Assembly (NCBI GenBank): GCA_045130275.1
Contig: JBGUPL010000081.1
Location: 1,270 to 65,269, forward strand
Source of the DNA: Bacteroidales bacterium
GTDB lineage: Bacteria; Bacteroidota; Bacteroidia; Bacteroidales; WCHB1-69
Length of the DNA stretch: 64,000 nucleotides
Direction of reading: 5' to 3'
Position 1 is the first letter of the stretch; every line of letters starts with the position of its first letter. The translations under genes and the position numbers were made by a program. Below, one piece after another: positions 1 through 59,980 of this stretch. Under the pieces are notes generated by a model. That model saw nothing but the letters and a program-made list of their open reading frames with translations, was not told the DNA's origin and made no database searches.

Positions 1-352
1 CGCCGCAGAAGATGCCGTTTTCTTTGTTGCCGAAAAAGACCATTCCGCAGAGGTGAGGAATGAGGACCGCAAGTCCCATCAACGTCATAAAACCGCCGGT
101 GAGGACGTTATCTAACAGTTTCTGTTTGATGGTTTTATGTGATTTGCTCGACACATTCAGCTTCTTCATCACTTCAGCGGGGTCAAGATCGGGGTGTTTC
201 TCCATCATTGCTATCAAAATTTCCGTTTGTTTGTCGATTTCGTGGTTTTTGCGTTTATTAATCAACCATATAACCATCAAGGGCAGCACCACGCAAATGC
301 CGATTACTACGATGATTATCATTAATACTCCTAAAACTCTTACTACATACAT
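1..352 (-). CDS. hypothetical small membrane protein (partial; 3' end lies beyond window start)
   Basis: Absent from the ORF track because it runs off the window. Reverse-strand ATG at 350-352 gives MYVVRVLGVLMIIIVVIGICVVLPLMVIWLINKRKNHEIDKQTEIL..., with two hydrophobic segments and a charged linker. It is more plausible than the antisense ORF 60..368(+). Confidence 0.55.
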   Translation of the reverse strand, partial: MYVVRVLGVLMIIIVVIGICVVLPLMVIWLINKRKNHEIDKQTEILIAMMEKHPDLDPAEVMKKLNVSSKSHKTIKQKLLDNVLTGGFMTLMGLAVLIPHLCGMVFFGNKENGIFCG

Positions 353-456
353 GACTATTAATTATTAAGGTTATACATTTCCGTTCATTACCGAATCGAT
401 TCAACCGTTAAACGGATGAAGTGGGCAAAAGGTGACATTTGAGGCGAAAAAAATTG

Positions 457-464
457 TACCTTTG
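457..464 (+). promoter_or_regulatory. Bacteroidota -7 promoter box (TACCTTTG)
   Basis: Matches TAnnTTTG, 24 nt upstream of the hypB ATG. Confidence 0.55.
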
Positions 465-487
465 CACCCGAATTGGAAATAGTGTAA

Positions 488-1150
488 ATGAACGAGGTAA
501 AGGTTATCGAAATCAAAAAAAGCGTCTTTGCAGAGAATGAGAAAGATGCTGATGCTCTTAGAGTTGAATTGAAAAACAAAGGGGTGTGTCTCCTCAATTT
601 GATGTCTGCTCCCGGCAGCGGCAAGACCACCACTCTTATCCAGCTAATTAACAGGATTAAAGACAAAATCCGTGTTTCCGTGATGGAAGCCGACATCGAC
701 AGCGATGTGGATGCGGTGAAAATCAAGGAGGCCACCGGCGTGCCGTCCATCCAGTTGCACACCGGCGGCATGTGCCACCTCGACGCGGAGATGACCCGCC
801 AAGGACTCGACAACCTCGACCTCGAAGAGACCGACCTCGTCATTCTCGAGAATGTCGGCAACCTGGTCTGCCCTGCCGAGTTCGACACCGGCGCCACCTG
901 CAACGCGATGATCCTTTCCGTGCCCGAGGGCGACGACAAACCCCTCAAGTACCCCCTCATGTTCACCGTCTGCGACCTCGTCATCATCAACAAGATGGAC
1001 GTGGTGCCCTACTTCGATTTCGACATCGAACGCTGCAAGAAGAACATCCTCATGCGCAATCCCAACGCGACTATCATCCCCGTCTCCGCCAAAACTGGCG
1101 ACGGCATGGACGCACTCGCCGAATGGTTGCGGGGAAAGCTGCGCTGTTAA
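488..1150 (+). CDS. hypB: hydrogenase nickel-incorporation GTPase HypB
   Basis: P-loop SAPGSGKTT, ENVGNLVCP and NKMD GTPase motifs. Length and overall pattern are typical of HypB. Confidence 0.9.
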   Translation: MNEVKVIEIKKSVFAENEKDADALRVELKNKGVCLLNLMSAPGSGKTTTLIQLINRIKDKIRVSVMEADIDSDVDAVKIKEATGVPSIQLHTGGMCHLDAEMTRQGLDNLDLEETDLVILENVGNLVCPAEFDTGATCNAMILSVPEGDDKPLKYPLMFTVCDLVIINKMDVVPYFDFDIERCKKNILMRNPNATIIPVSAKTGDGMDALAEWLRGKLRC

Positions 1151-1218
1151 TTACTGCGTGTTGATTATTTCATGTTGATTACTGCATGTTAGTTGGTTGA
1201 AGTTAGTTAATTGATGTT
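1148..1218. repeat. left arm of inverted repeat array (units CTGCGTGTTGATTA / TTTCATGTTGATTA)
   Basis: Starts on the hypB stop codon (TAA inside GTTAATTAC). The reverse complement of 1159-1181 matches 1733-1755 at 20 of 23 positions. Confidence 0.8.
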
Positions 1219-1653
1219 ATGAAGATTTATAACTTTGAAGATTTAGTGGTTTGGCAATTGGCAAGGGAACTTGTCAAGGATATTTATGCTCAATTTGCTA
1301 CAAGTAAAGATTATGGCTTCAACAATCAGATTCAGCGAGCAGTGATTTCCATAATGAACAACATTGCAGAGGGATTTGATAGAAGTAAAAATGCAAAAGA
1401 CAATAAACAACTTTTAAGTTACCTGAATACATCTTACGGATCTTGTGGAGAAGTGAAAAGTATGTTGTATGTGGCAGAAGATTTGGAATATATAAATGCT
1501 GAAATAGCCAAATCATTACGCGAACATTGTACTGATTTGTCCATAAAAATTGCCTCATTCATGTCTCATCTCCGCAGCTATGACAGCAACAAAAATAACA
1601 AAAACAACAGCGAAGCTAACCAACAGCCGAAGGCTAACCAACAGCGAAGCTAA
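1219..1653 (+). CDS. four-helix-bundle protein (23S rRNA intervening-sequence protein family)
   Basis: LVVWQLARELVKDIY...IMNNIAEGF...GSCGEVKSMLYVAEDL pattern is typical of this family. The gene is AT-rich compared with its flanks. The last ~25 codons (NKNNKNNSEANQQPKANQQRS) are encoded by the repeat array. Confidence 0.8.
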   Translation: MKIYNFEDLVVWQLARELVKDIYAQFATSKDYGFNNQIQRAVISIMNNIAEGFDRSKNAKDNKQLLSYLNTSYGSCGEVKSMLYVAEDLEYINAEIAKSLREHCTDLSIKIASFMSHLRSYDSNKNNKNNSEANQQPKANQQRS

Positions 1654-1848
1654 TTAACAGCCGCAGGCTAACCAACAGCGAAGCTAATCAACACGAAGTA
1701 AACAACAGCCGAAGGCTAAACAACAGCAAAGCTAACTAACATGAAATAATTAACAGCCGCAGGCTAACCAACAGCGAAGCTAATCAACACGAAGTAAAAA
1801 ACAGCCGCAGGCTCACCAACACGAAGTAATAAACACGAAGTAATAACC
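1585..1848. repeat. right arm of inverted array (units TAACCAACAGCGAAGC, TAACCAACAGCCGAAGGC, TAATCAACACGAAG, TAACTAACATGAAA)
   Basis: Tandem degenerate units of 14-18 bp. Contains an exact 52-bp internal duplication (1651-1702 = 1747-1798). Ends in TAACCGTT immediately before the ATG at 1852. Confidence 0.85.
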
Positions 1849-1851
1849 GTT

Positions 1852-4671
1852 ATGCCTGAAATGTCCACCAAATTTGTCCCGAAACACAAAGGGGACAAGA
1901 ACCCGAACCCCAAGCTTCTCAAGCTGGTTCGTCACATCACCGATCGTATCCCCGGTAAAATCAAGATGGATACCGACGCCCCTGAGTATTGGGGTCTCGC
2001 CTGCATCTTCGAGGACGAGATGGATGCCGTCACCCGTGAGGCCGCTCTGGATCTGATGCTGGATATGCTGCCCGGCAATCCTTTCCGGGTGCGCAAACAT
2101 TGGACCAATGCGCAAATCCACGAGCTGAACAGCCAAAAACATTACACTCCTGACGACAAGTCTTTCGACGAACTTCTGGACCTGATGGCCCGCATGGGAG
2201 TCATGGAGTATGACTATGGCGACAAATACACCAAAGACGGGCCCGTTCCCGGATCTACCTACGAAAGGAAAGACCGCGTGTATTGGGTGCCCATGTTCGT
2301 CCCTGGCAGTGCCGAATACACCAATATGAACGAGGAACTCATGAAGAAACACCCGGAACTGGGCATGTTCTTCGAACGTATGACCTTCCTGCCGTTAGAG
2401 AAGGTCACTCCGATGGTGCCTATGGGCGGTTCCGGTATCGGCATGCACGTGATTCCGGTGGAGAAAGCCATCTCCATGGAGAATCAATCCATTGATATAG
2501 AGCATATTTCATATTGGCTTAAACGCTACGAAGGCCACCTGGCGGTGGGCATCTGCTCCTGCCGTATTGGTCGCAAAGGACTGGATGAAGGCTGCGCCGA
2601 CGATTACCACGATTGGTGTATCGGCGTGGGCGATATGGCGGAGTATCTAGCGGAGACGGGCCGAGGTCACTTCATCACCTACGATGAGTGCATGGCTATC
2701 TTGAAAAAAGCAGAGGATCATGGTTTTGTACACCAAATCACCAATATCGACGGCGAAGGCAAAATCTTCGCCATCTGTAACTGCAACGTCAAGATCTGCA
2801 ATGCGTTGCGTACTTCACAACTCTTTAATACCCCCAACATGAGCCGTAGTGCTTACGTGGCGAAGGTGGATCCGACGAACTGCGTGGCTTGCGGACGTTG
2901 CGTGGAATACTGTCCTGCGGGAGCTGTACGTCTGGGACAGAAACTCTGCACCAAACACGGCGAGCAGACCTACCCGAAACAGGAGCTGCCCGATGCCAAG
3001 AAGTGGGGACCGGAGAAGTGGGACGAGGACTACCGCGACAAGAACCGCATCAACTGCTACCCGACCGGTACGGCACCTTGTAAAACGGCCTGTCCGGCGC
3101 ATATCGCGGTGCAAGGCTATCTGAAGAAAGCGGCCGAAGGCAAATATACGGAGGCGTTGGAACTCATCAAGCGCGAGAACCCGTTCCCGGCGGTCTGCGG
3201 GCGTGTCTGCAACCGTCGCTGCGAGGATGCCTGCACGCGCGGCACCATCGACCAGCCCATCGCCATCGATGCGGTGAAGAAGTTCATTGCAGAGCAGGAT
3301 CTCAAAGCGGAGACCCGCTTCATTCCTGAGGTGAACATTTGTTCCAACGTGAAAGAATTTTGGGATGAGAAGATTGCCATCATCGGCGGCGGCCCTGCCG
3401 GTCTGAGCTGCGCCTACTACCTCGCCACGATGGGCTACAAGCCCACCGTCTTCGAGAAAGACGAGATCCCCGGCGGTATGCTGCAATACGGCATCCCCTC
3501 TTACAAGTTAGACAAAGAAGTCATCAAAGCCGAAATCGACATCATGCGCGAAATCGGTGTGGAGATCCGCACTGGCGTGGAAGTCGGCAAAGACATTACC
3601 ATACAGCAACTTAGAGATCAAGGATACAAGGGCTTTTATGTGGCCATCGGTTGCCAGGGCGGCAAATTGCCCGGCATCACCGGTGAGAATCTGCCCGGAA
3701 CCACCACGGCCATTGATTTCCTGCACAACTGCAATTGCGGCACGAAGGTCAGCGGCAAGGTCGTCGTGGTCGGCGGCGGCAACGTGGCCATCGATGCGGC
3801 GCGGGTCGCCAAGCGCGGCGGTGCCGAGTCCGTCACCATGCTCTCGTTGGAGACCGAAGACATCATGCCCGCCTCCTTGGAGGAGCGCCGCGAGGCCCGC
3901 GAGGACGGCGTGGTCATCAACCCCGGCTGGGGCCCGAAAGAGGTGCTCGGTACCGACAAAGTCACCGGCATCGTCTTCAAGAAATGCACCTCCGTGTATG
4001 ACAAAGACCACCGTTTTTCTCCGCAATATGATGAGGAAGAAACGATTACGCTGGATGCCGACTTGGTCATCTTCGCCATCGGTCAGACGGTCATCCTCAA
4101 GGATCTGCTCAAGGACACGAAAGTGGAGTTCGTGCGCGGCGTCTATCCCGTGGCCGACAAACTGACCTACCAGACCGCCGAAAAGGACATCTTCGTGGGC
4201 GGTGACTGCTTCACCGGTCCGAAGTTCGCCATTGATGCTATCGCCGCCGGCAAGGAGGGCGCCGAATCGTTGCACCGCTACGTACAGCACGGTCACCTCA
4301 CCATAGGTCGCAACCGCCGCGACTTCATCGAGCTCGACAAGGACGACATCGTGGTGGAGAGCTACGACAATTCATCCCGCCAAGTGGAGGGCGTGTCCGA
4401 GCAGGCCGACAAGTTCAAGGAATACACGCTCACGCTTACGGAGGAGCAGGTGCGCACCGAGACATCCCGCTGTCTGAGCTGCGGCGCGTCCGTAGTGGAC
4501 GAAAACCGCTGCATCGGCTGCGGCATCTGCACCACCAAGTGCGCCTTCGACGCCATCCACCTCTTCCGCGACAACCCTGACGCCAGCATCATGCGCACCT
4601 CCGAGGACAAGTTCAGCGGCATTCTGCCGTACATGCTCAAACGAGCCGCGAAGATCGTCTTTAAGAAGTAA
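1852..4671 (+). CDS. multidomain Fe-S / FAD-NAD(P) oxidoreductase (GltD-like core, two ferredoxin-type modules, Cys-rich N-terminal domain)
   Basis: IAIIGGGPAGLSCAYYL dinucleotide fold. GltD-like CPAHIAVQGY...CGRVCNRRCEDAC motif. CxxCxxCxxxCP motifs at CVACGRCVEYCP and CIGCGICTTKC. The N-terminal ~330 aa carry CSCRIG...AICNCNVKIC and belong to no family I recognise. Confidence 0.75.
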   Translation: MPEMSTKFVPKHKGDKNPNPKLLKLVRHITDRIPGKIKMDTDAPEYWGLACIFEDEMDAVTREAALDLMLDMLPGNPFRVRKHWTNAQIHELNSQKHYTPDDKSFDELLDLMARMGVMEYDYGDKYTKDGPVPGSTYERKDRVYWVPMFVPGSAEYTNMNEELMKKHPELGMFFERMTFLPLEKVTPMVPMGGSGIGMHVIPVEKAISMENQSIDIEHISYWLKRYEGHLAVGICSCRIGRKGLDEGCADDYHDWCIGVGDMAEYLAETGRGHFITYDECMAILKKAEDHGFVHQITNIDGEGKIFAICNCNVKICNALRTSQLFNTPNMSRSAYVAKVDPTNCVACGRCVEYCPAGAVRLGQKLCTKHGEQTYPKQELPDAKKWGPEKWDEDYRDKNRINCYPTGTAPCKTACPAHIAVQGYLKKAAEGKYTEALELIKRENPFPAVCGRVCNRRCEDACTRGTIDQPIAIDAVKKFIAEQDLKAETRFIPEVNICSNVKEFWDEKIAIIGGGPAGLSCAYYLATMGYKPTVFEKDEIPGGMLQYGIPSYKLDKEVIKAEIDIMREIGVEIRTGVEVGKDITIQQLRDQGYKGFYVAIGCQGGKLPGITGENLPGTTTAIDFLHNCNCGTKVSGKVVVVGGGNVAIDAARVAKRGGAESVTMLSLETEDIMPASLEERREAREDGVVINPGWGPKEVLGTDKVTGIVFKKCTSVYDKDHRFSPQYDEEETITLDADLVIFAIGQTVILKDLLKDTKVEFVRGVYPVADKLTYQTAEKDIFVGGDCFTGPKFAIDAIAAGKEGAESLHRYVQHGHLTIGRNRRDFIELDKDDIVVESYDNSSRQVEGVSEQADKFKEYTLTLTEEQVRTETSRCLSCGASVVDENRCIGCGICTTKCAFDAIHLFRDNPDASIMRTSEDKFSGILPYMLKRAAKIVFKK

Positions 4672-4678
4672 ATGTCGG

Positions 4679-4873
4679 TGACTGCGTGTTGATTACTACG
4701 TGTTGATTACTGCGTGTTGATTACTGCGTGTTAATTACTGCGTGTTAATTATTGCGTGTTACCAACAGCGAAGCTAACCAACAGCCGAAGGCTAACCAAC
4801 ATGAAATAACTAACACGAAGTAACCAACAGCCGAAGGCTCATCAACAGCCGCTGGCTCACAAACACGAAGTAA
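4679..4873. repeat. ORF-less inverted array: left arm (CTGCGTGTTGATTA)n joined directly to a right arm of TAACCAACA-hairpin units
   Basis: The arm junction is at 4760/4761 (TGCGTGTT|ACCAACAGCGAAGCTAA). The units are reverse complements of one another. Confidence 0.85.
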
Positions 4874-4875
4874 AT

Positions 4876-5223
4876 ATGCACGAATTGGGTATCGTCTTTT
4901 ACATCATCCGGGACGTCAAGAAGGTGGCGGAGGAGAACCACGTGGAGCGGGTCTCCGAAGTGGTTATGGACATCGGGGAAGTCTCCACGGTGGTACCTCA
5001 CCTTCTCACCGACTGCTGGCGCTGGGCCGCCGACAAAGAGGAGCTGCTGAAGGGTTGCGAGCTGAAATGCAACATTATCCCGGCTGTCACCTGGTGCGAC
5101 GACTGCAAACAGGAGTACGAGACGGTGAAACACGGAAAGACGTGCCCCCACTGCCACAGCGAGAATACCTGGTTGCTGCGCGGCAACGAAGTCGAGATTC
5201 GAGAGATAGTAGTTAGTAGTTAG
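4876..5223 (+). CDS. hypA: hydrogenase nickel-insertion protein HypA
   Basis: N-terminal MHELGI and the zinc site CDDC...CPHC. The 115-aa length is typical. Confidence 0.88.
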   Translation: MHELGIVFYIIRDVKKVAEENHVERVSEVVMDIGEVSTVVPHLLTDCWRWAADKEELLKGCELKCNIIPAVTWCDDCKQEYETVKHGKTCPHCHSENTWLLRGNEVEIREIVVSS

Positions 5224-5229
5224 TAGTTA
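5209..5229. repeat. heptad array (GTAGTTA)x3 across the hypA stop codon
   Basis: Three exact 7-bp units. The TAG stop at 5221-5223 lies inside the array. Confidence 0.8.
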
Positions 5230-5263
5230 TGAACGGAAAAATCACATATATTTGAAAAAAGAA

Positions 5264-5420
5264 TTCCTTGAGCAGCCTCGAAGAGGCAAGACGCACGAAG
5301 TGCAAGTAACCCCACACAAGCGACGGAGGAGCGTAGTGTGGGGTTAAGGAAACCCAGAGGCAACACGCACGAAGTGCAATTAACCCTACACAAGGTGAAG
5401 CCGCAGTGTGGGGGGCATGG
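5264..5420. repeat. TTCCTTGAGCAG half-element followed by two tandem ~74-bp hairpin-rich units
   Basis: GCCTC-GAA-GAGGC hairpin, then units starting at 5285 and 5359. Each unit has GCAC-GAA-GTGC plus an 8-bp stem (CCCCACAC...GTGTGGGG and CCCTACAC...GTGTGGGG). Confidence 0.75.
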
Positions 5421-5431
5421 AGAAAAAAATG

Positions 5432-5439
5432 TATCTTTG
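5432..5439 (+). promoter_or_regulatory. -7 promoter box TATCTTTG
   Basis: Consensus TAnnTTTG, 19 nt upstream of the ATG at 5458. Confidence 0.6.
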
Positions 5440-5457
5440 CACACGAAAGTCGAAACA

Positions 5458-6213
5458 ATGTATAAACGTATCCTCATATCAGCCATCGCAGCACTCTGCT
5501 GCCTTGCAACCTTGCCTTGCGCGGCTCAAGTTACCATAAAGTTCAAATCGCTGAAGATCAGTAACGTCACGGATAAAATATGGGAACCCGAGAAGGATCT
5601 CTTTTGTGCGTTCAGACTTCCATCCTATGATCGTGGAGACGTTTATCTCCGTATTGAAGCGGAAATCGTAAACGAGGGTGACACGGCGGTGCCCATTCCC
5701 AGCTTTGATCGCGAAAAGATGATGTTGGTGTATCACAATCCCAACCCTAGAGACAACTCTCTTGCAAACAGCATGGTTAAAAGCAGGTTAGGGGCGATAG
5801 TAAGAGTTTGTGGCATCCTTGAACCCAACTTCCCGCCACATTCGTGCAGGTACAACGATTACTGGGATTTGATCAATGTCAATAGGTTTGACGGTATGCG
5901 CCCGCTGTATTATGTCTCTGCCGCCATACCCACCATGCGTCTCTGCATGGAGGTCCCCGGCCAAGGACTGGTCTATTCCGACGCACCCGAGGAAATCATC
6001 GTCAATGGCCGGAAAATCGACCCCGACTGGCGGAACTTCGACTACTCCGACAACGCCTACCTGCTCGTGAACAACGAACTGATGCGGGAGTTCATGCTCG
6101 AAAACCCGCACCTCTTCGGCAGCACCTTCTCCGAAGACCTGCTAATGAAAGAATTTGTCAGCAATATGGCCTTCACCTACCACTGCTTCCCCATCACCAA
6201 CCCAAACAACTAA
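5458..6213 (+). CDS. secreted hypothetical protein
   Basis: Start moved to the ATG at 5458 (MYKRILISAIAALCCLATLPCAAQ signal peptide), downstream of the promoter box. The stop TAA is the first triplet of a TAACAGCGAAGC repeat unit. Confidence 0.65.
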   Translation: MYKRILISAIAALCCLATLPCAAQVTIKFKSLKISNVTDKIWEPEKDLFCAFRLPSYDRGDVYLRIEAEIVNEGDTAVPIPSFDREKMMLVYHNPNPRDNSLANSMVKSRLGAIVRVCGILEPNFPPHSCRYNDYWDLINVNRFDGMRPLYYVSAAIPTMRLCMEVPGQGLVYSDAPEEIIVNGRKIDPDWRNFDYSDNAYLLVNNELMREFMLENPHLFGSTFSEDLLMKEFVSNMAFTYHCFPITNPNN

Positions 6214-6290
6214 CAGCGAAGCTAACTAACATGAAATAACCAACACGAAGTAATCAACAGCCGAAGGCTAAAAAACACGAAGTAACAAAC
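6211..6290. repeat. right-arm-type unit array (no left arm)
   Basis: TAACAGCGAAGC TAACTAACATGAAA TAACCAACACGAAG TAATCAACAGCCGAAGGC ... Confidence 0.8.
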
Positions 6291-6305
6291 AAAAAAACAA
6301 CGAAT

Positions 6306-6641
6306 ATGTCATGCTTTATCATCCCCATGGCGCAGGCCATCGCCACAAGCGCCTACAGAAAAGCCAACGCGAAAGCGATTGAAAGTTCAGAACACGCACT
6401 CACGCGCAATATCCCGGCGTTAGAGAAGATGCTCTGGGGCGGCACCGTGATGCTCATCGTCGATCACGTCATCAACGGCGAACTCACCTGGCAGTACCCC
6501 TTCTTCACCGCCCTGGAGTCCGGCGGCTTCCCTGTCATGCTCCGCGAACTCCTCACCGTCGGCGTACCCATGTCGCTGGTCCTCACCGCCGTATGGGCTG
6601 TTTGGAGCATTGCCAAAGCCCGCAAAGTCACTGCGTGTTGA
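6306..6641 (+). CDS. small membrane protein, unknown function
   Basis: 111 aa with hydrophobic segments (GGTVMLIVDHVI and VPMSLVLTAVWAVWSI). The stop TGA lies inside the first left-arm repeat unit. Confidence 0.55.
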   Translation: MSCFIIPMAQAIATSAYRKANAKAIESSEHALTRNIPALEKMLWGGTVMLIVDHVINGELTWQYPFFTALESGGFPVMLRELLTVGVPMSLVLTAVWAVWSIAKARKVTAC

Positions 6642-6775
6642 TTACTACGTGTTGATTACTGCGTGTTGATTACTGCGTGTTACCAACAGCGAAGCTAATC
6701 AACATGAAATAACTAACAGCCGAAGGCTAACCAACAGCGAAGCTAACCAACATGAAATAACTAACTTAAATTTTA
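6629..6775. repeat. second ORF-less inverted array
   Basis: Left arm is (CTGCGTGTTGATTA)x3-4 and right arm is TAAYYAACA-hairpin units. It shares the identical 25-nt junction TGCGTGTTACCAACAGCGAAGCTAA with 4753-4777. Confidence 0.85.
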
Positions 6776-6781
6776 ACCGTT

Positions 6782-7873
6782 ATGTTTTTCCAAGTTTATG
6801 GGGCTAACGCCCTGGCCCAGTGGGGGATGTTGCTCGTTGTCCTCGTGGGTCTCATCCTGTTCAACGAGTTCGCCCGTCGCACCAAAGCCGGCGGCATCAT
6901 CACATTTTTCGTCATCCCCGTCATCCTGACGGTCTATTTCGTGGCCATCGCCATCGGAGCCCGCTCCGGAGCTGAATGGGCGGTCAACAACCAGACGCAC
7001 GTCTATATGAACGGCTGGTTCCACTACGCCAAGCTCTACGCCGCGCTCACCGGTTGTATCGGCTTCATGATGATCAAGTACAAATGGGGCATCGGCGCCA
7101 AACACTGGTTCAAACCGTTCCCGTTCATCATCGTGGCCATCAACATCCTCATTGCCGTGGCTTCCGACTTCGAATCCGCCTTTATGGGCTGGAACAAGTG
7201 GTGGCTCTCCAGCGAGGGTGTGTGGCTCTACGGCGGCTGGCACAACGTTATGAACGGCGTCGCCGGTCTGCTCAACATCCTCTGTATGACCGCTTGGTGG
7301 AACGTCTTCCCGTCCAAGGATAAGAAAGACATGATCTGGGCCGACATGACCTGGGTCTTCATCGTGGTCTATGACATCTGGAACTTCGCCTACACCTACA
7401 ACTGCTTGCCCACGCACAGCTGGTTCTGCGGTATCGCGTTGTTGCTTGCCCCGACGATTGCAGCTATTTGCTGGAACCGCGGAGGTTGGATCATGAACCG
7501 CGCCAACACGCTGGCTATCTGGTGCATGTTCGCGCAGGTGTTCCCGCTCTTCCAAGAGACCTTCAAAGACGGTTTCCAGGCCTTCAAGTGGGCTGTGCTT
7601 CCCGTGCAGTATCCCAACGGCATCGAGACCATCACGGAGATTTACGCTGCTGCCGGCGGTGAAGCTGCCGCTGTGGGCACCACCGTTGAGACCGTGGCCG
7701 GCAATCCGACCATGATGACGGTGATCAGCGCCTTGGCTCTCATCACCAACGCTGTCGCCCTGTGCTACATCATCGCCCAGGCCAAGAAGCGTCACATCAA
7801 CCCGTACAAGGAAGATGTCTTCATCAACCAGAAGTACTACAAAGATGCTATGGAGCGCGCCGATCTGGCATAA
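6782..7873 (+). CDS. polytopic Trp-rich integral membrane protein, unknown function
   Basis: 363 aa with about 9 hydrophobic helices. Preceded by the same TAACCGTTATG context as the gene at 1852. Confidence 0.7.
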   Translation: MFFQVYGANALAQWGMLLVVLVGLILFNEFARRTKAGGIITFFVIPVILTVYFVAIAIGARSGAEWAVNNQTHVYMNGWFHYAKLYAALTGCIGFMMIKYKWGIGAKHWFKPFPFIIVAINILIAVASDFESAFMGWNKWWLSSEGVWLYGGWHNVMNGVAGLLNILCMTAWWNVFPSKDKKDMIWADMTWVFIVVYDIWNFAYTYNCLPTHSWFCGIALLLAPTIAAICWNRGGWIMNRANTLAIWCMFAQVFPLFQETFKDGFQAFKWAVLPVQYPNGIETITEIYAAAGGEAAAVGTTVETVAGNPTMMTVISALALITNAVALCYIIAQAKKRHINPYKEDVFINQKYYKDAMERADLA

Positions 7874-7892
7874 TCCAAACACGAATGCTATG

Positions 7893-7928
7893 AAAAAGGT
7901 CGCAGGAAAAAAACCTGCGACCTTTTTT
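7893..7928. terminator. bidirectional intrinsic terminator
   Basis: AAAAAGGTCGCAGG-AAAAAAA-CCTGCGACCTTTTTT, located between convergent genes. Confidence 0.8.
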
Positions 7929-7950
7929 GGTTCAATAATTTCGGTAAATT

Positions 7951-9129
7951 TTACAGCGCGGCAAACGGTGCCACCGCCCGGTCGAAGATGCCGTTGACGT
8001 AGGCGAGGACCATGCCGTAGTTGCTGACCGGGATGCCTGCTTCGATGGCCGGGCGCAACCGTTCCTTCAACTGCTTGCGGGTGACCATGCAGCCACCGCA
8101 CTGGATAACCATCGCATATTGCTGGATGTCAGGGATTTGGTTGAGGCCCGACACGAAATCGAACTGCAGCTCTTTGCCCGTGAACTTGCGGATAAGACGC
8201 GGCAGCTTCACCCGCCCGATATCCTCGCAAGAGGTGAGGTGCGTGCAGGATTCCAACATCAGGATGCGGTCGCCGTCGCTAAGGTCGCGCAACTTCGGGG
8301 TCCCTTCAAGGTAAGCTCCGAACTCGCCCTTCTGGTGCGCCAATACCACGCTGAAGCCCGTCAGCGGGATGCTTTCGGGCACGGACTTCTCCACCTTGTG
8401 GAATGCCTGGCTGTCGGTGACAACCAATTTCGGGGCGCGGTGGTTTTGCAGGTAGGCCGCCACCTTGTCCTCTTTCAGCACGATGGCAACCGCCTCATTG
8501 TCAAGAATATCGCGGATGGTCTGCACTTGCGGGAGGATGAGCCGACCTTCGGGGGCTTCCGTGTCAATGGGAGTCACCAAGAGCACTTCATCGCCCTCGC
8601 CGATGAGGTCGCCGAGCAGCGAACGGGTACGGTACGCCGATTCGGGCATAATCCGCACGATTTCTTGCAGCATTTCGTCTATGCCGGAATGCGTTTTTGT
8701 ACTGACATTCAAGACTTTGCGATCATCAACATCCATCTCTCGAGGAGCGGTCAGGTCGCATTTGTTGTTGACGATGAGGTAGGGAAGTTCGAATTGGTGG
8801 AACTGTTCTATCAGCTGTCGTTCGGGGATGCCGACTTCATAATCGGTAATCACAAGGATGGCTAAATCGATGGTTTTCAACACTTCCAGTGATTTTTGGA
8901 TGCGTTTCGCCCCGACGGTGCCTTCGTCGTCGATTCCGGCGGTGTCGATGATGATGCAGGGCCCGATGCCGAAAATCTCGATGGATTTGCGCACGGGGTC
9001 GGTGGTGGTGCCGGCCGTGGCGTCCACGATGGCGACCTCCTGTCCCGTGATGGCGTTAATAAGGGAACTCTTGCCGTTGTTCCTCCGCCCAAAAATGCCG
9101 ATGTGCGGCTTGTCGTTACGTCCTTTCAT
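7951..9129 (-). CDS. hydF: [FeFe]-hydrogenase H-cluster maturation GTPase HydF
   Basis: N-terminal GTPase motifs GRRNNGKSSLINAITG, DTAG and NKCD. C-terminal cluster ligands CTH...QCGGC. Confidence 0.85.
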   Translation of the reverse strand: MKGRNDKPHIGIFGRRNNGKSSLINAITGQEVAIVDATAGTTTDPVRKSIEIFGIGPCIIIDTAGIDDEGTVGAKRIQKSLEVLKTIDLAILVITDYEVGIPERQLIEQFHQFELPYLIVNNKCDLTAPREMDVDDRKVLNVSTKTHSGIDEMLQEIVRIMPESAYRTRSLLGDLIGEGDEVLLVTPIDTEAPEGRLILPQVQTIRDILDNEAVAIVLKEDKVAAYLQNHRAPKLVVTDSQAFHKVEKSVPESIPLTGFSVVLAHQKGEFGAYLEGTPKLRDLSDGDRILMLESCTHLTSCEDIGRVKLPRLIRKFTGKELQFDFVSGLNQIPDIQQYAMVIQCGGCMVTRKQLKERLRPAIEAGIPVSNYGMVLAYVNGIFDRAVAPFAAL

Positions 9130-24330: not shown

Positions 24331-24409
24331 TTGGCTGTTGGCTTTTAGCTATTGGCTTTAAGTATGAATCACTTGCCAACAGCCAATAGCCAACAGCTAA
24401 TAGCCAAAA
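24331..24409. repeat. inverted heptad arms (TTGGCTGTTGGCTTTTAGCTATTGGC ... GCCAACAGCCAATAGCCAACAGCTAATAGCC)
   Basis: Left arm 24331-24356 and right arm 24375-24409 are reverse complements in 7-nt register. The loop is about 18 nt. Confidence 0.8.
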
Positions 24410-33171: not shown

Positions 33172-34182
33172 ATGCTGTTGCTGGCAGCACTGACTTTTTT
33201 TTTTAAGATAACTTTCGCCCAAGATTATCACTTTTCCCAATTTTATGCTAACCCGACAGGTGTGAATCCCGCATTGACGGCAGCTTTCGATGGCGTGGTG
33301 CGTGGTTCTGTCATTATGCGCTCACAATGGCTGGCGGTTTCCAAGCCGTTTATGACGATGGGCGCAGAGGTCGATGGCGCGGTCTATAAGAACCATCGAC
33401 GGCAGGAATTGTTGGGCCTCGGGCTCACGTTCAACGGCGACAAGGCCGGCGATGTGAATTATCGTTCCGTGCAGGCGGTGTTGTCAATGTCGTACATCAA
33501 AAACATTGGCCGCCACAGCCGTCACAAACTCGGACTGGGACTATACGGGGGCATCATCAATAACCATTTTGATGTGGATCCCAGTACATGGGATATGCAG
33601 TTCGTGGATGGTGTTTTCTATCCCTATCTTCCTAGTGGTGAGAATTTTGAGACAATCCAACGACTGTACGCGGATTTCGGCGCGGGAGCGTTTTGGAGCT
33701 TTTTGCCCACCAAGACGGTGCTCTTGCGGGCTGCAGTCAGTGCCTCGCATATCAACCGACCATTCTATGGCTTCGGGGAGAGCAATGCGCGGCTGCCCGT
33801 GAAGTACACCGCCCATTTCTATTCGCAGATTGCTCTTAGTCGCGAAATCTCTTTGTCTCCAATGTTTTACGCTTCCTGGCAACGTTCGCTCAGCGAGTAT
33901 TTGTTCGGATGTAATGTGGAATATTTCAACAAGAAAAACAGCTATACCACGCTTTATACGTTAGGCGGCGGACTCCTTTACCGATGGAATGATGCGCTGA
34001 TTTTCAATGGATTTGTGAGTTGGCAGAATCTCCGCTTCTCCATCGCATACGATGTCAATGTGTCGCCGTTTGTGGTGGCTACGCACGGGCGCGGCGGTCT
34101 GGAAATCGCCGTGTCTTACATTTTCAAGAAGAGGACTATTACGAGGATTGGGAAGGAACCGTGTCCGTATGACATTATGTAA
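33172..34182 (+). CDS. PorP/SprF-family type IX secretion membrane protein (in frame with rarA)
   Basis: Internal ATG at 33172 opens a signal peptide MLLLAALTFFFKITFAQ, followed by the family N-terminal motif DYHFSQFYANPTGVNPALTA. Confidence 0.75.
   Translation: MLLLAALTFFFKITFAQDYHFSQFYANPTGVNPALTAAFDGVVRGSVIMRSQWLAVSKPFMTMGAEVDGAVYKNHRRQELLGLGLTFNGDKAGDVNYRSVQAVLSMSYIKNIGRHSRHKLGLGLYGGIINNHFDVDPSTWDMQFVDGVFYPYLPSGENFETIQRLYADFGAGAFWSFLPTKTVLLRAAVSASHINRPFYGFGESNARLPVKYTAHFYSQIALSREISLSPMFYASWQRSLSEYLFGCNVEYFNKKNSYTTLYTLGGGLLYRWNDALIFNGFVSWQNLRFSIAYDVNVSPFVVATHGRGGLEIAVSYIFKKRTITRIGKEPCPYDIM
33195..33204 (+). repeat. T10 homopolymer in the PorP-like signal peptide codons
   Basis: ACT TTT TTT TTT AAG. 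Either +1 or -1 slippage creates an immediate TAA stop. Confidence 0.9.
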
Positions 34183-34279
34183 TGGTTAATGGTTAAAGGT
34201 TAAAGGTTAATGGTTAAAGGTTAATGGTTAAGGGTTAAGGGTTAAGGGTTAGTGTTTAAGGGTTAATGGTTAAGGGTTA
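34183..34279. repeat. heptad array (GGTTAAW / GGTTAAG)x~13
   Basis: Begins immediately after the TAA stop. Each unit carries TTAA, which places TAA on both strands. Confidence 0.9.
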
Positions 34280-39333: not shown

Positions 39334-39373
39334 GACTTAGACTTAAACTTAAACTTAGACTTAAACTTAAACC
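39334..39373. repeat. hexamer array (ACTTAG ACTTAA ACTTAA)x2
   Basis: 6-bp units with an 18-bp super-period in the pyrB-pyrI spacer. Confidence 0.8.
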
Positions 39374-39414
39374 AGTGACCATTGACTATATTCCATTCCA
39401 ACAAACACACAATT

Positions 39415-39434
39415 CACTGATCACTGATCACTGA
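39415..39434. repeat. heptad array (CACTGAT)x3
   Basis: Located directly after the pyrB stop. Confidence 0.75.
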
Positions 39435-46925: not shown

Positions 46926-46970
46926 CCAACAGCCAACAGCCAATAGCCAATAGCTAATAGCCAACAGCTA
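46926..46970. repeat. heptad array, CCAAYAG flavour
   Basis: CCAACAG CCAACAG CCAATAG CCAATAG CTAATAG CCAACAG CTA. Contains the nadK stop codon. Confidence 0.85.
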
Positions 46971-47834
46971 ATCGTTCCTTTTGTCCAACCCCCACAGCAG
47001 TTTTTCGCGGATGGTGGCGTAGAAGTTGGCGTTGTCGAACAGCACCGTACGGATGGTGAACTGCTCTTTGGTGATGTGCAGTTTGACGTTGTCGTTAAGG
47101 ATAACTCGCTGCGTGTCAACACATAGGGAATATCTTCCGCCGCGCCCTTGCACGGTAATGTCCAATTCTTGCGATGCCGGGATGACTAATGGGCGGACGC
47201 TGAGCGAGTGGGACGCGATAGGGGTGAGCACTACCACGTCGGTCTGCGGGTGCAGGATGGGGCCGCCGCAGCTCATCGAGTAGGCCGTCGAGCCCGTCGG
47301 GGTGGCCACAATCAGACCGTCGGCCCAATAAGTGTTGATGTGCTGTCCGCCGGTTGAGACGGAGATGGCGTTGATGGAGTCGCTGTCGGTGGCACGGATG
47401 GTCACGTCGTTCACTACGAAGTGTGTGTCCAAGGACAGGGGCTCGCTGCCCTCGATGTGGAGCAGCGAGCGCGATTCCAAGGTGTATTGTTGATTGAGAA
47501 GCATGCGTATGCAAGCTTCAAAGTTGTCTTTTTTGATGGCTGACAAAAAGCCAACGCGCCCAGTATTGATGCCCACCAAGGGGATTCCGAGGTCGCCGAT
47601 TAAGTTGGCGGCGTCGATGAACGAGCCGTCACCCCCAATGGAAATCATAAAGTCCACATTGCCAATATGTTGCAGGTCCAAATATGACTCAAATCGCTGA
47701 ATTTCAGTGTTTTGGCATGAAATATTATTGTGCGCCATCACCCTGCAACAGTTTTTTTGCAAAAGGGCGACGACCGAGTCGATAAGGGTCTGCGGTCCGG
47801 CACCGGGACGGCTGTAGAGCGCGAACGTGAGCAT
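46968..47834 (-). CDS. nadK: NAD+ kinase
   Basis: Start set at MLTFALYS (TAATG overlap with the buk stop). Motifs GGDGSF and ATPTGSTAYSMSCGGP. Confidence 0.88.
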   Translation of the reverse strand: MLTFALYSRPGAGPQTLIDSVVALLQKNCCRVMAHNNISCQNTEIQRFESYLDLQHIGNVDFMISIGGDGSFIDAANLIGDLGIPLVGINTGRVGFLSAIKKDNFEACIRMLLNQQYTLESRSLLHIEGSEPLSLDTHFVVNDVTIRATDSDSINAISVSTGGQHINTYWADGLIVATPTGSTAYSMSCGGPILHPQTDVVVLTPIASHSLSVRPLVIPASQELDITVQGRGGRYSLCVDTQRVILNDNVKLHITKEQFTIRTVLFDNANFYATIREKLLWGLDKRND

Positions 47835-51546: not shown

Positions 51547-51620
51547 AATGTAGAATTAAGAATGAAGAATTAAGAATGAAGAATGAAGAATGTAGAATGA
51601 AGAGTGTAGAATATGGAGTG
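51547..51620. repeat. heptad array, GAATKAA flavour
   Basis: AATGTA GAATTAA GAATGAA GAATTAA GAATGAA GAATGAA GAATGTA GAATGAA GAGTGTA GAATATG. Confidence 0.85.
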
Positions 51621-51719
51621 TTTGGAGGAGGTTGATATTTTTCGTTGTTTGAAGGGCGTGGAGTCTCAAAAAAATATATTTTTGCTGTCGATTTTGTGAG
51701 ATAATCTAATTAATCGTAT

Positions 51720-52403
51720 ATGAGCAAAAAAGTTTTTCAGGTTTTGGGGCTGTTTGTCTTTTTGTGTATGTTGGCCCTGACCGCCAGCGCCCAGTGGTCG
51801 TTAGGCATCAAAGGCGGGTGGGATTACACCTCCATCACGCGGTCCAACGCGGGTCGAATTGATGAAACCTATTCTCCGCTAAGCGGTTACGATGTCGGCA
51901 TACAGGCCCGTTACGGTTTCACCGACTGGTTCGCCCTCCGCGCCGACCTCAGCGTGATGCGCCGCTCCCACCGCATGGACCGCCACCTCGACTACCTCGA
52001 TTCGCTCTACACCGAGCATCATAACCTCTACCTGATGCTTCCGGTGTTGGCCGACTTCTCCTTCGGAGGCGAGCATTTCCGCGGCCATGCCATGCTCGGC
52101 GGCTATGTCGGCTATTGGCTGCAAGACCATATCAAGGGCAAAACTTACTGGATGACAGACTATTGCATGTATTACAACCCCTTTGACGAAAAGCGTCTGT
52201 TCACGCAGGAGGACCGCCGTTTCAATGCCGGATTAGTTGGAGGTCTTGGCCTGAGCTACCGTTTCACCGAGCATTGGGGCCTCAACCTCGACGCACTCTA
52301 CTACTACGACCTCGTCAGCCACCGCCGCAGCTCCCCGCACCTCCGCGACCCCCGTTACCTTAGCACGTTGTCTGTCACCTTTGGCGCATCATACGTTTTC
52401 TAG
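51720..52403 (+). CDS. outer-membrane beta-barrel (porin-family) protein
   Basis: Signal peptide, alternating strands and a C-terminal SYVF. Confidence 0.7.
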   Translation: MSKKVFQVLGLFVFLCMLALTASAQWSLGIKGGWDYTSITRSNAGRIDETYSPLSGYDVGIQARYGFTDWFALRADLSVMRRSHRMDRHLDYLDSLYTEHHNLYLMLPVLADFSFGGEHFRGHAMLGGYVGYWLQDHIKGKTYWMTDYCMYYNPFDEKRLFTQEDRRFNAGLVGGLGLSYRFTEHWGLNLDALYYYDLVSHRRSSPHLRDPRYLSTLSVTFGASYVF

Positions 52404-52441
52404 GCAATAGGCAACAGGCAACAGGCAACAGATAACAGGCG
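52403..52441. repeat. heptad array, GGCAAYA flavour
   Basis: GGCAATA GGCAACA GGCAACA GGCAACA GATAACA GGCG, starting on the TAG stop. Confidence 0.85.
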
Positions 52442-57682: not shown

Positions 57683-57765
57683 AAATGGTTAACGTTTTCT
57701 ATTCACCGCTGCAAATGTACACTTTATTCGGGAATTTTCGACATTCTTTTGATTATTCTTGAATA

Positions 57766-57831
57766 GGCAAAAGGCAAAAGGCAAAAGGCAATAGGCAACT
57801 GCCAACAGCTAACAGCCAACAGCCAATAGCC
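57766..57831. repeat. heptad array switching flavour (GGCAAAA x3 > GGCAATA > GCCAACA/GCTAACA x4)
   Basis: Continuous 7-bp register. Its right part encodes the last residues and the stop codon of dcp. Confidence 0.85.
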
Positions 57832-59851: not shown

Positions 59852-59858
59852 TTTTTAA

Positions 59859-59922
59859 AGGTTAATGGTTAATGGTTAAAGGTTAAAGGTTAATGGTTAA
59901 AGGTTAATGGTTAAAGGTTATT
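59859..59922. repeat. heptad array (GGTTAAW)x8, ending GGTTATTGAAGC
   Basis: Same flavour as 34183-34279. Confidence 0.9.
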
Positions 59923-59946
59923 GAAGCCTGATTGCTTTTCTCTTTT

Positions 59947-59980
59947 CACTGCTCACTAATCACTAATCACTAATCATCAC
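59947..59980. repeat. heptad array (CACTAAT)x3-4
   Basis: CACTGCT CACTAAT CACTAAT CACTAAT CATCAC. Confidence 0.8.

Follow-up and report, generated by a model that had tools for sequence, protein, structure and literature searches.

How did a gene of the four-helix-bundle (4HB) family PF05635, the family of the S23p protein encoded in intervening sequences (IVSs) of 23S rRNA, come to lie between two protein-coding genes of an operon, enclosed by long inverted repeats? This question is raised by a locus near the start of a 64,000-nucleotide stretch of DNA from a Bacteroidales bacterium (positions 1,270 to 65,269, forward strand, of contig JBGUPL010000081.1, assembly GCA_045130275.1), which is called the window throughout. 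A first-pass annotation, made from the letters alone, had described an IVS-like cassette inserted between hypB and the next gene, and had suggested that such cassettes are mobile or processed and are not confined to rRNA. We analyzed the locus, the repeats that surround it and related loci in other assemblies (designated by L numbers). The locus is probably an IVS-like gene cassette without a transposase, located outside rRNA at the apex of a hairpin-type operon spacer built of hypervariable inverted arrays.

The PF05635 gene and its repeat arms

The cassette comprises the following elements.

1138-1218, + strand: left (5') arm; antisense units GATTACTGCGTGTT of 14 nt, about 3.3 copies at 1145-1190, then a leader
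1219-1653, + strand: 4HB protein gene (PF05635/TIGR02436), 144 aa; the domain is codons 1-120 (1219-1578)
1585-1851, + strand: right (3') arm; A-rich trailer at 1585-1601, then about 16 sense units at 1602-1849
1651-1798, + strand: exact 52-bp duplication in the right arm, 1651-1702 being identical to 1747-1798

The assignment of the open reading frame (ORF) at 1219-1653 to the four-helix-bundle family held. The ORF matched PF05635 (E 2.3e-28; 98.9 bits against a cutoff of 33.8; residues 7-111 on positions 1-104 of the 106-position profile) and TIGR02436 (E 2.9e-25; 88.6 bits against a cutoff of 24). These were its sole Pfam and NCBIfam matches; it contained no recognized catalytic motif, and PADLOC gave no defense-system match. 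The only solved relative by sequence was PDB entry 2GSC (XCC0516; E 1.6e-8, residues 7-119), which is a pentamer; by this match, the window's protein may likewise form a homopentameric toroid of four-helix bundles. The motif GxxRxxxSxxxNxxE, conserved in XCC0516 homologues (PMC3936711), was present in an alignment of the 4HB subfamily, with R40, S44, N48 and E51 invariant and Q rather than G at the first position. The ORF was AT-rich, as noted before, with 34.5% GC compared to 54-57% in hypB, the oxidoreductase gene and hypA. Codons 1-120 were under strong purifying selection, with a ratio of nonsynonymous to synonymous divergence (dN/dS) of 0.03-0.14, while codons 121-144 read through into the right-arm repeats and form a tail that varies between relatives. 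Comparisons at the sequence level indicate that the gene is translated and selectively maintained. No further PF05635 ORF was found in the 64-kb window. No rRNA match was obtained in window positions 1-9000 or in the 20 strongest related loci; the cassette lies in a protein-coding operon, as had been claimed.

Both arms are built from one family of units. The sense unit, written AACACGAAGUAAUC, consists of AACA, a stem, GNA, the complementary stem and TAAYC, and is 14, 16 or 18 nt long. The stems of the resulting mini-hairpins covary around the fixed GNA loop (C..G, GC..GC, GCC..GGC, T..A). In the window, only antisense units were found upstream of the 4HB ORF and only sense units downstream. 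Searches for AACAGCGAAGCTAA, with at most 1 mismatch, and for AACACGMAGTAA returned 9 and 20 matches, compared to 0.03 and 0.58 expected by chance. The arms lie where the earlier annotation had placed them, with small corrections: the left-arm register begins at 1138, within the last hypB codons, the hypB stop codon falls inside a unit, and the right-arm units end at 1849, 2 nt before the ATG at 1852. The leader at 1188-1218 consists of degenerate 7-mers (GTTAGTT/GGTTGAA) and ends in TGTT directly at the ATG; this leader also precedes the gene in L040, L052 and L057. In the right arm, a tandem repeat of period 48 (5 copies, score 308) was detected, and Tandem Repeats Finder also reported a period of 96 with 2.3 copies. 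The 52-bp duplication was exact, as described, and is the product of a recent 96-nt tandem duplication of six units.

Pairing of the arms was supported by folding. Positions 1159-1181 and 1733-1755 were complementary at 20 of 23 nt (87%), the value given initially. In the minimum free energy fold of 1140-1860, the left arm paired with approximately 1730-1810 of the right arm (z -3.7). The arm-arm duplex had an energy of -72 kcal/mol, compared to -44 +/- 5.6 for mononucleotide shuffles of the left arm (z -4.9; 0 of 100 shuffles reached it), and z ranged from -4.9 to -9.3 in 7 of the 12 cassettes examined. These data agree with the proposed IVS-like layout, a long inverted repeat with a PF05635 ORF precisely at its apex. 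The arms had also been described as built of mutually reverse-complementary units; they share one unit family and are predicted to pair, but they are not mirror images. Across the hyp-operon loci (window and L002-L078), sense units of the 3' arm had a GAA loop in 209 of 232 cases (90%), whereas antisense units of the 5' arm had GCA in 44 of 72 (61%). Stems of 2-3 bp (GC, GCC) were common only in 3'-arm units, with mostly 1-bp stems in the 5' arm. This asymmetry is constant relative to transcription, which suggests that the 3' arm also serves as the leader of the next gene. If paired, the arms would carry a regular A-G mismatch approximately every 14 nt.

The stop codons of hypB (1148-1150) and of a small ORF further downstream (6639-6641) fall within antisense units (GTTAATTA and GTTGATTA), and sense units are translated as the C-terminal tails of the 4HB protein (1579-1653) and of a lipoprotein-like ORF (6196-6213). 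These observations suggest that the ends of genes have been overwritten by arrays, and that strains differ in their protein tails as a result. We rejected the interpretation of the repeats as CRISPR-like (clustered regularly interspaced short palindromic repeat) arrays, since the units are contiguous and lack unique spacers. A riboswitch or leader was also rejected because Rfam gave no match in the repeats at E <= 1 and the spacers are dispensable in relatives.

ORF-less arrays of the same repeat family

Three further arrays of the family, overlooked by the first-pass annotation, lie in the window.

4672-4875, + strand: ORF-less hairpin, slot B, from the oxidoreductase stop to the hypA ATG; left part 4681-4760, apex TGTT-ACC-AACA, right part 4761-4873
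6196-6291, + strand: right-type-only (sense) array in the lipoprotein-like ORF/small ORF spacer
6628-6765, + strand: ORF-less hairpin, slot C, in the small ORF/DUF5692 spacer; left part 6628-6681, right part 6685-6765

These hairpins, and the arrays in many spacers of metagenome-assembled genomes (MAGs), show that the arms are not exclusive to the cassette. A scan with AACAGCGAAGCTAAYYAACA, using one genome per species, yielded 65 loci, nearly all in ruminant-gut Bacteroidales/Paludibacteraceae MAGs. Their arrays lay between co-directional genes in 121 of 139 classifiable cases, and wherever a spacer carried both unit types the antisense (left) units preceded the sense (right) units, 18 to 0. 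PF05635 ORFs occurred among these loci in hyp operons only. Unit copy number differed even between contigs encoding identical 4HB proteins (L002/L003, L008/L009), and spacers ranged from 2 nt to 360 nt among close relatives and were interchangeable with unrelated elements. The arms are thus not terminal repeats specific to the cassette; they belong to a family of hypervariable spacer repeats, which occurs far more often than the 4HB gene does.

Matches to the unit pattern outside the Bacteroidales were limited to L059 and L027. L059 (CACXIR010000073.1, labelled a Fibrobacter succinogenes MAG) carries a DUF5692 gene 98% identical to that of the window and is probably misbinned; the single match in L027, a Scytonematopsis MAG, may be due to chance. 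Runs of N occur inside the arrays of public scaffolds (L002, 9340-9440; L015, 2430-2465), and 4HB homologues are found mostly on contigs shorter than 4 kb, the arrays breaking short-read assemblies.

Occupied, empty and exchanged spacers

Seven operon proteins were mapped onto the orthologous operons of other species, and the 4HB gene was found in three different spacers. Slot A (hypB/oxidoreductase) holds it in the window, L002-12, L018, L040, L052, L078, L165-167 and L170. Slot B (oxidoreductase/hypA) holds it in L057 and, independently, in contig L164. Slot C (small ORF/DUF5692) holds it in L014 and L065, in both of which slot A is contiguous and empty. In L022 the gene was present in none of the three slots, and slot A instead contained a hairpin with no ORF, alignable on both sides with the flanks of the window's cassette; slot A of L066 contained a different 7-mer array. 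The earlier inference of an insertion agrees with these spacers, which are empty or carry an ORF-less hairpin in relatives. The same ORF and arms at this locus in all relatives, with no other copies, the picture expected of an ordinary resident gene, is not what we observed.

In 12 of 12 cassettes, the upstream spacer carried antisense units only and the downstream spacer sense units only, whereas ORF-less spacers carried left and right parts side by side. This arrangement is predicted by insertion at the apex of a hairpin and would not result from two ordinary spacers. The 4HB ORF was co-oriented with the host genes in all 12. In L165, left units GAGTGAATGTT were matched by right units AACATTCACTC.

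Divergence of the gene was discordant with that of its neighbors. Between the window and L008, synonymous divergence (dS) was 0.26-0.74 for the neighbors and 2.67 for the 4HB gene; between L014 and L065, it was 0.32-1.13 for the neighbors and 0.03 for the 4HB gene. Slot A of L170 carries the allele lineage found in slot C of L014 and L065 (dN 0.02). As read from the assembled operons, these comparisons show relocation, loss and allele exchange of the gene among the spacers of one operon, and they bear out, on an evolutionary time scale, the mobility that had been suggested.

Several side observations concern the spacers themselves. The oxidoreductase/hypA junction was compared in the window (4665-4676 and 4864-4875), L008 (8330-8350), L014 and L043. 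GAAGTRAAT stands at both ends of the slot-B hairpin in every array-bearing version, and relatives without the oxidoreductase/hypA spacer read AAGAAGTGAAT|ATGCACGAA. The 9-nt direct duplication resembles a target-site duplication but could equally be the last repeat unit (ACGAAGTAA). A second dispersed element, CCTTGAGCAGCC(C/T)C-GNNA-GGGGC...CCCCACAC...GTGTGGGG, with several GAAG-looped hairpins, occurs in the window (5262-5425; 30354, - strand; 34282; 52460) and in L003 (8300-8390), L008 (9190-9260), L065 and L072. It fills slots of relatives that hold array hairpins in the window, which suggests that the spacers are interchangeable landing sites.

Paralogues and distant relatives of the cassette

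Paralogues with 61-65% identity were found at three unrelated loci (M20 peptidase/CoaE, HisRS/DUF1599 and hypothetical/DUF2764), and all three had antisense-type arrays upstream and sense-type arrays downstream. Counting these loci, the neighbors of the gene in 7 contexts were hypB, the oxidoreductase gene, hypA, DUF5692, M20 peptidase, CoaE, HisRS, DUF1599 and DUF2764; no known nuclease, recombinase, transposase or reverse transcriptase adjoins the 4HB gene in any context examined.

We then considered more distant relatives. A metagenome scan with the family alignment provided the 80 nearest loci (L084-L163; 40-88% identity; many kinds of samples). The 70 usable relatives (40-58% identity) sample the branch nearest the query and not the whole family. 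Upstream and downstream flanks paired at z <= -3 in about 40 of the 70. At least 5 inverted 7-mers were shared between the flanks in 52 (74%), compared to 22% for non-cognate flank pairs and 19% for neighbor ORFs, the latter a control for which ORFs were called only crudely; the observed mean was reached in 0 of 10000 permutations. A stringent tandem-repeat test was positive in 9-13 of the 70 loci, and so inverted flanks are general in this sample and long tandem arrays are not. Neighboring ORFs were co-oriented with the gene in 51 of 56 and 54 of 61 cases (about 90%).

The flank repeats differ by lineage: GTTCAAG/NNNGAAC in one, GTTTATAAA/TTTATAAAC in another, and a 7-mer with GCGCC-GAA-GGCGC mini-hairpins in a third. 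A polar core was nevertheless common across lineages, with AAAGT(T/C) enriched 13.7-fold upstream and ACTTT/AACTT about 11-fold downstream, and with a polarity of about 29 loci to 4. The downstream core of the distant PF05635 flanks reads (A/G)ACTTT. In L087 and L113, the units consist of a 7-mer plus a GC-rich mini-hairpin with GAA or GCA triloops, the unit architecture of the window. The association between PF05635 genes and inverted arrays appears to extend well beyond the hyp locus, insofar as sequence comparison can tell.

The host operon and other repeats of the window

Co-directional genes, from hypB through the DUF5692 gene, occupy the first 8 kb of the window.

457-464, + strand: Bacteroidetes-type promoter motif TAccTTTG upstream of hypB; likely promoter of the cassette-carrying transcript
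488-1150, + strand: hypB, the upstream host gene; CobW/HypB/UreG GTPase (PF02492, E 7.9e-20), stop codon TAA at 1148-1150
1852-4671, + strand: oxidoreductase gene, the downstream host gene; 939 aa, Fe-S/FAD (PF07992, PF14691, Fer4 domains)
4876-5223, co-directional with hypB: hypA
between hypA and the small ORF, co-directional: lipoprotein-like ORF
6306-6641, co-directional: small ORF
6782-7873, co-directional: DUF5692 gene

In a regular-expression search of positions 1-8200, intergenic TAnnTTTG sites were found at 457, before hypB, and at 5432, before the lipoprotein-like gene, and none upstream of the 4HB ORF. A scan for sigma-70 promoters and intrinsic terminators, which is ill-suited to Bacteroidetes, gave no more than shuffled sequences did.

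Nucleotide identity of 92-96% places the window near Bacteroidales/Paludibacteraceae MAGs of the ruminant gut, RUG083 and RUG11592 among them. An exact match to the 4HB protein was obtained on a single contig, of 652 bp, and none to HypB. When window positions 488-7873 were compared with L008, L014, L022, L040, L057 and L065, adjacent genes of one operon pair differed several-fold in synonymous divergence; between the window and L014, for example, dS was 2.2 for hypB and 0.56 for hypA. Amino-acid identity between the window and L066 was 85% for hypB and 98.7% for the oxidoreductase. This mosaic of dS values fits a history of recombination within the operon, the breakpoints falling in the repeat-bearing spacers.

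Other intergenic 7-nt arrays lie at the following window positions.

24331-24407
34180-34279
39335-39434
46926-46972
51547-51621
52402-52440
57765-57831
59855-59976

Their units include GGTTAAT (14 copies), GCCAACA, AGGCAAC, TCACTGA/TCACTAA and AATGAAG. The array at 24331-24407 is an inverted pair, TTGGCTG.../...GCCAACA, with a G/T-rich-then-A/C-rich polarity like that of the main family, whose 18-nt unit likewise opens with the 7-mer AACAGCC.

Discussion

Our results show, from comparison of assembled sequences, a PF05635 gene between inverted arrays, ORF-less hairpins of the same repeats, presence and absence of the gene among relatives, its occupation of three spacers of one operon, replacement of its alleles, and a matching layout both at unrelated loci and for most of the closest metagenomic relatives. 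We propose that the cassette is without its own promoter and would be read within a hypB-oxidoreductase-hypA transcript. In this transcript, the G/U-rich 5' arm may pair with part of the A/C-rich 3' arm, placing the ORF in the loop as in ORF-bearing 23S IVSs. By analogy with IVSs, the paired arms would be a plausible substrate for RNase III, and cleavage would release the cassette mRNA from the cistrons on either side. The surplus length of the 3' arm, where mini-hairpins are capped by GAA, may double as the leader of the next gene. The arrays would grow and shrink by slippage, and the cassette could have moved or been exchanged without a transposase, through recombination, gene conversion or template switching between arrays common to the spacers.

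A number of points weigh against this proposal. We infer co-transcription from the positions of the promoter motifs, and arm pairing in vivo and RNase III cleavage from the IVS analogy; recombination is a proposed mechanism. Arm pairing was weak in 5 of the 12 cassettes, and sense and antisense pairing were equally stable (48 of 82, p = 0.11), so that there is no G-U signature of RNA-level selection on pairing. The arms are unequal in length (70 versus about 250 nt) and in unit composition, and for the ORF-less hairpins of slots B and C (4672-4875 and 6628-6765) the predicted folds were just slightly more stable than those of shuffled sequences (z -1.8 and -1.5). With a pI of 6.1, the 4HB domain is not basic. 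The main caveat is that every comparison uses metagenome assemblies from short reads, which may join repeats wrongly; the occupation of slot C is supported by two MAGs in which slot A is unambiguously empty, and that of slot B by two contigs of one project.

The alternatives differ mainly in what they make of the repeats. That the gene is an ordinary resident, the repeats being generic operon-spacer filler of the lineage and their inverted arrangement a coincidence, is disfavored and very improbable. Arrays do occur in many spacers without the gene, and the closest homologues stand at the same hypB/oxidoreductase position in several lineages; however, two generic spacers would give the order left-right-gene-left-right, whereas every cassette is left-only upstream and right-only downstream. 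Relatives that lack the gene or carry it in other slots, its discordant divergence, and inverted flanks of unrelated sequence around 74% of distant relatives argue against it as well. A more serious possibility, although one we would not bet on, is that the arrays are host cis-elements, similar to repetitive extragenic palindromic (REP) sequences and bacterial interspersed mosaic elements (BIMEs) or to the heptamer repeats that precede start codons. In a member of the Bacteroidetes without Shine-Dalgarno sequences, they would determine how stable the mRNA is or how well the downstream cistron is translated, and the 4HB gene would be a passenger tolerated in the permissive loop and unconnected with the arms. 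This would account for arrays that lie almost exclusively between co-directional genes and end at start codons, for a right arm that is A/C-rich and much longer than the left, and for loop and stem usage that is asymmetric relative to transcription. It leaves unexplained why distant PF05635 genes with different repeats again lie at the apex of inverted arrays, and the variation of spacers from 2 to 360 nt between close relatives, together with their interchangeability with unrelated elements, argues against a required regulatory role.

The repeats might instead be a purely DNA-level phenomenon, namely, slippage-prone minisatellites with GNA-triloop mini-hairpins, inverted by template switching during replication, without RNA function and with the gene present by chance. 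Mini-hairpins of the d(GCGAAGC) type are unusually stable in single-stranded DNA. Hypervariable copy number, including the very recent exact 52-bp duplication, stem lengths that covary (C, GC, GCC) around a fixed GNA loop, the equality of sense and antisense pairing, and the breaking of assemblies in arrays (the N runs of L002 and L015) would all follow. We nevertheless regard this account as unlikely, given that the GAA/GCA and stem-length asymmetry is constant relative to transcription, that all 12 cassettes, and about 90% of relatives, have the ORF in the orientation of the host genes, and that a recurrent association with one protein family is left unexplained. Comparably doubtful, in our opinion, is a single system of protein and repeats, in which a probably pentameric Avd-like protein would recognize tandem units in RNA or single-stranded DNA and either propagate and maintain the arrays, in the manner of REP-associated tyrosine transposases (RAYTs) with REP/REPIN sequences, or regulate array-bearing transcripts, in the manner of TRAP and its repeated triplets. 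The occurrence of polar inverted arrays with the gene across the family, the enrichment of the AAAGT(T/C)/ACTTT core across lineages, the strong purifying selection on the protein and the many ORF-less arrays per gene copy point in this direction, as does the homology of PF05635 to Avd, which works with a reverse transcriptase on a flanked RNA template (PMC10053308; bioRxiv 10.1101/2023.10.23.563531). On the other side, binding and catalysis are a proposal only, the pI of the domain is 6.1, no known nuclease, recombinase or reverse transcriptase lies beside the gene in the contexts examined, and the motif enrichment may partly reflect kinship among the 70 loci.

The transposase-less cassette at a hairpin apex, which we prefer, may also be an instance of something broader. 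As a tentative extension, in which we have rather little confidence, PF05635 genes with polar inverted arrays would be widespread transposase-less hairpin-apex cassettes in host transcripts, and the 23S IVS would be the special case in rRNA. The probably pentameric Avd-like protein would then recognize units in RNA or single-stranded DNA, and by doing so would help the cassette and the ORF-less arrays to spread or persist, or would control the operons that bear arrays. We found no description of repeat-flanked PF05635 genes in operons in the literature, which is weak evidence, as the search fell short of most subscription journals. The function of IVS proteins and the origin and movement of IVSs are questions that date from the early 1990s, and the locus offers a natural series in one operon, with filled, empty, relocated and exchanged sites. 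Because a selected gene lies here in an ordinary mRNA, processing and protein-repeat binding can be approached without touching the ribosome. If the layout holds family-wide, scattered PF05635 genes, including those classed as CRISPR-associated, could be reinterpreted as selfish passengers, there would be a candidate protein partner for the intergenic heptamers and minisatellites of Bacteroidetes and Cyanobacteria, and an origin for Avd, the accessory protein of diversity-generating retroelements, would be suggested. Were the tentative extension correct, it would tie together the protein of IVSs, the heptamer repeats found between bacterial genes and the question of where Avd came from. In practical terms, the arrays break short-read assemblies and create mosaic operons.

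Comparison with known systems

In REP/BIME-RAYT systems (REPtrons, REPINs), a gene is flanked by inverted hairpin repeats that are also dispersed without it, and the RAYT protein is a homologue of HUH/Y1 (IS200/IS605-like) transposases. The 4HB gene is likewise flanked by inverted copies of repeats that also occur gene-less between genes; its product, however, is not an HUH/Y1 transposase, and its repeats are tandem arrays with a strict left-then-right polarity. With respect to insertion sequences and miniature inverted-repeat transposable elements, the cassette has no transposase and its arms are variable arrays rather than fixed termini; the 9-nt duplication GAAGTRAAT around the slot-B hairpins could be either a target-site duplication or a repeat unit.

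Intergenic heptamer repeats (TAACTGA) have been described in Beggiatoaceae, Cyanobacteria and Bacteroidetes (MacGregor 2015, PMC4679880), including arrays in Paludibacter, and long simple-sequence repeats were treated by Mrazek (2007, as cited in PMC4679880). The arrays of the window resemble heptamer arrays in being tandem, 7-nt-based, intergenic and forward, in ending a few nucleotides before start codons, and in their lineage specificity, variable copy number and sporadic phylogenetic distribution. They differ in that their units are 14, 16 or 18 nt long (a 7-mer spacer plus a mini-hairpin) and are paired with an inverted array; the heptamer literature describes direct repeats, with one inverted set and no embedded gene (PMC4679880), and we found no link to PF05635 in it.

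Avd belongs to a four-helix-bundle family homologous to PF05635 (PMC10053308) and acts on RNA in a manner dependent on flanking upstream and downstream RNA segments (bioRxiv 10.1101/2023.10.23.563531). Unlike a diversity-generating retroelement, the 4HB gene had no reverse transcriptase, template or variable repeat beside it in the 7 contexts examined, the search for a reverse transcriptase being confined to these neighborhoods and not extended to the remainder of the 64-kb window. Zhang et al. (2013, PMC3936711) found genes annotated as 23S_rRNA_IVP within cas operons, one such position being that between cmr3 and cmr2; these genes share with the cassette a parasitic-looking placement between co-directional genes of unrelated operons. 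The authors took this as a sign of a possible functional link to CRISPR-Cas, and their paper gives no description of flanking repeats.

The closest comparison is with the ORF-bearing 23S rRNA IVSs of Leptospira and Coxiella burnetii, which encode S23p of the same family. The cassette lies between protein-coding genes rather than in helix 9, 25 or 45, and since it is not in rRNA it is not a member of the 23S IVS class. Its arms are unequal arrays of 14-18-nt tandem units of variable copy number, whereas the IVS stem is a unique sequence of 28 bp. Its ORF is under strong purifying selection, in contrast to that of the Coxiella IVS, which is decaying and apparently untranslated (PMC4990558). IVSs are excised from the precursor by RNase III without re-ligation; such cleavage has been demonstrated in Coxiella, Salmonella and Leptospira, and hypotheses of a transposition remnant or a mobility protein have been reviewed (PMC4990558). 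In other respects the two correspond: in both, a co-oriented ORF lies in the loop of an inverted-repeat stem within a host transcript, a transcript that in our case is predicted. Both are sporadically distributed, with evidence of transfer and with ORF-less versions at the same kind of site, and both are AT-rich relative to the host, the Coxiella IVS having about 36% GC compared to 42.5% in the genome (PMC4990558).

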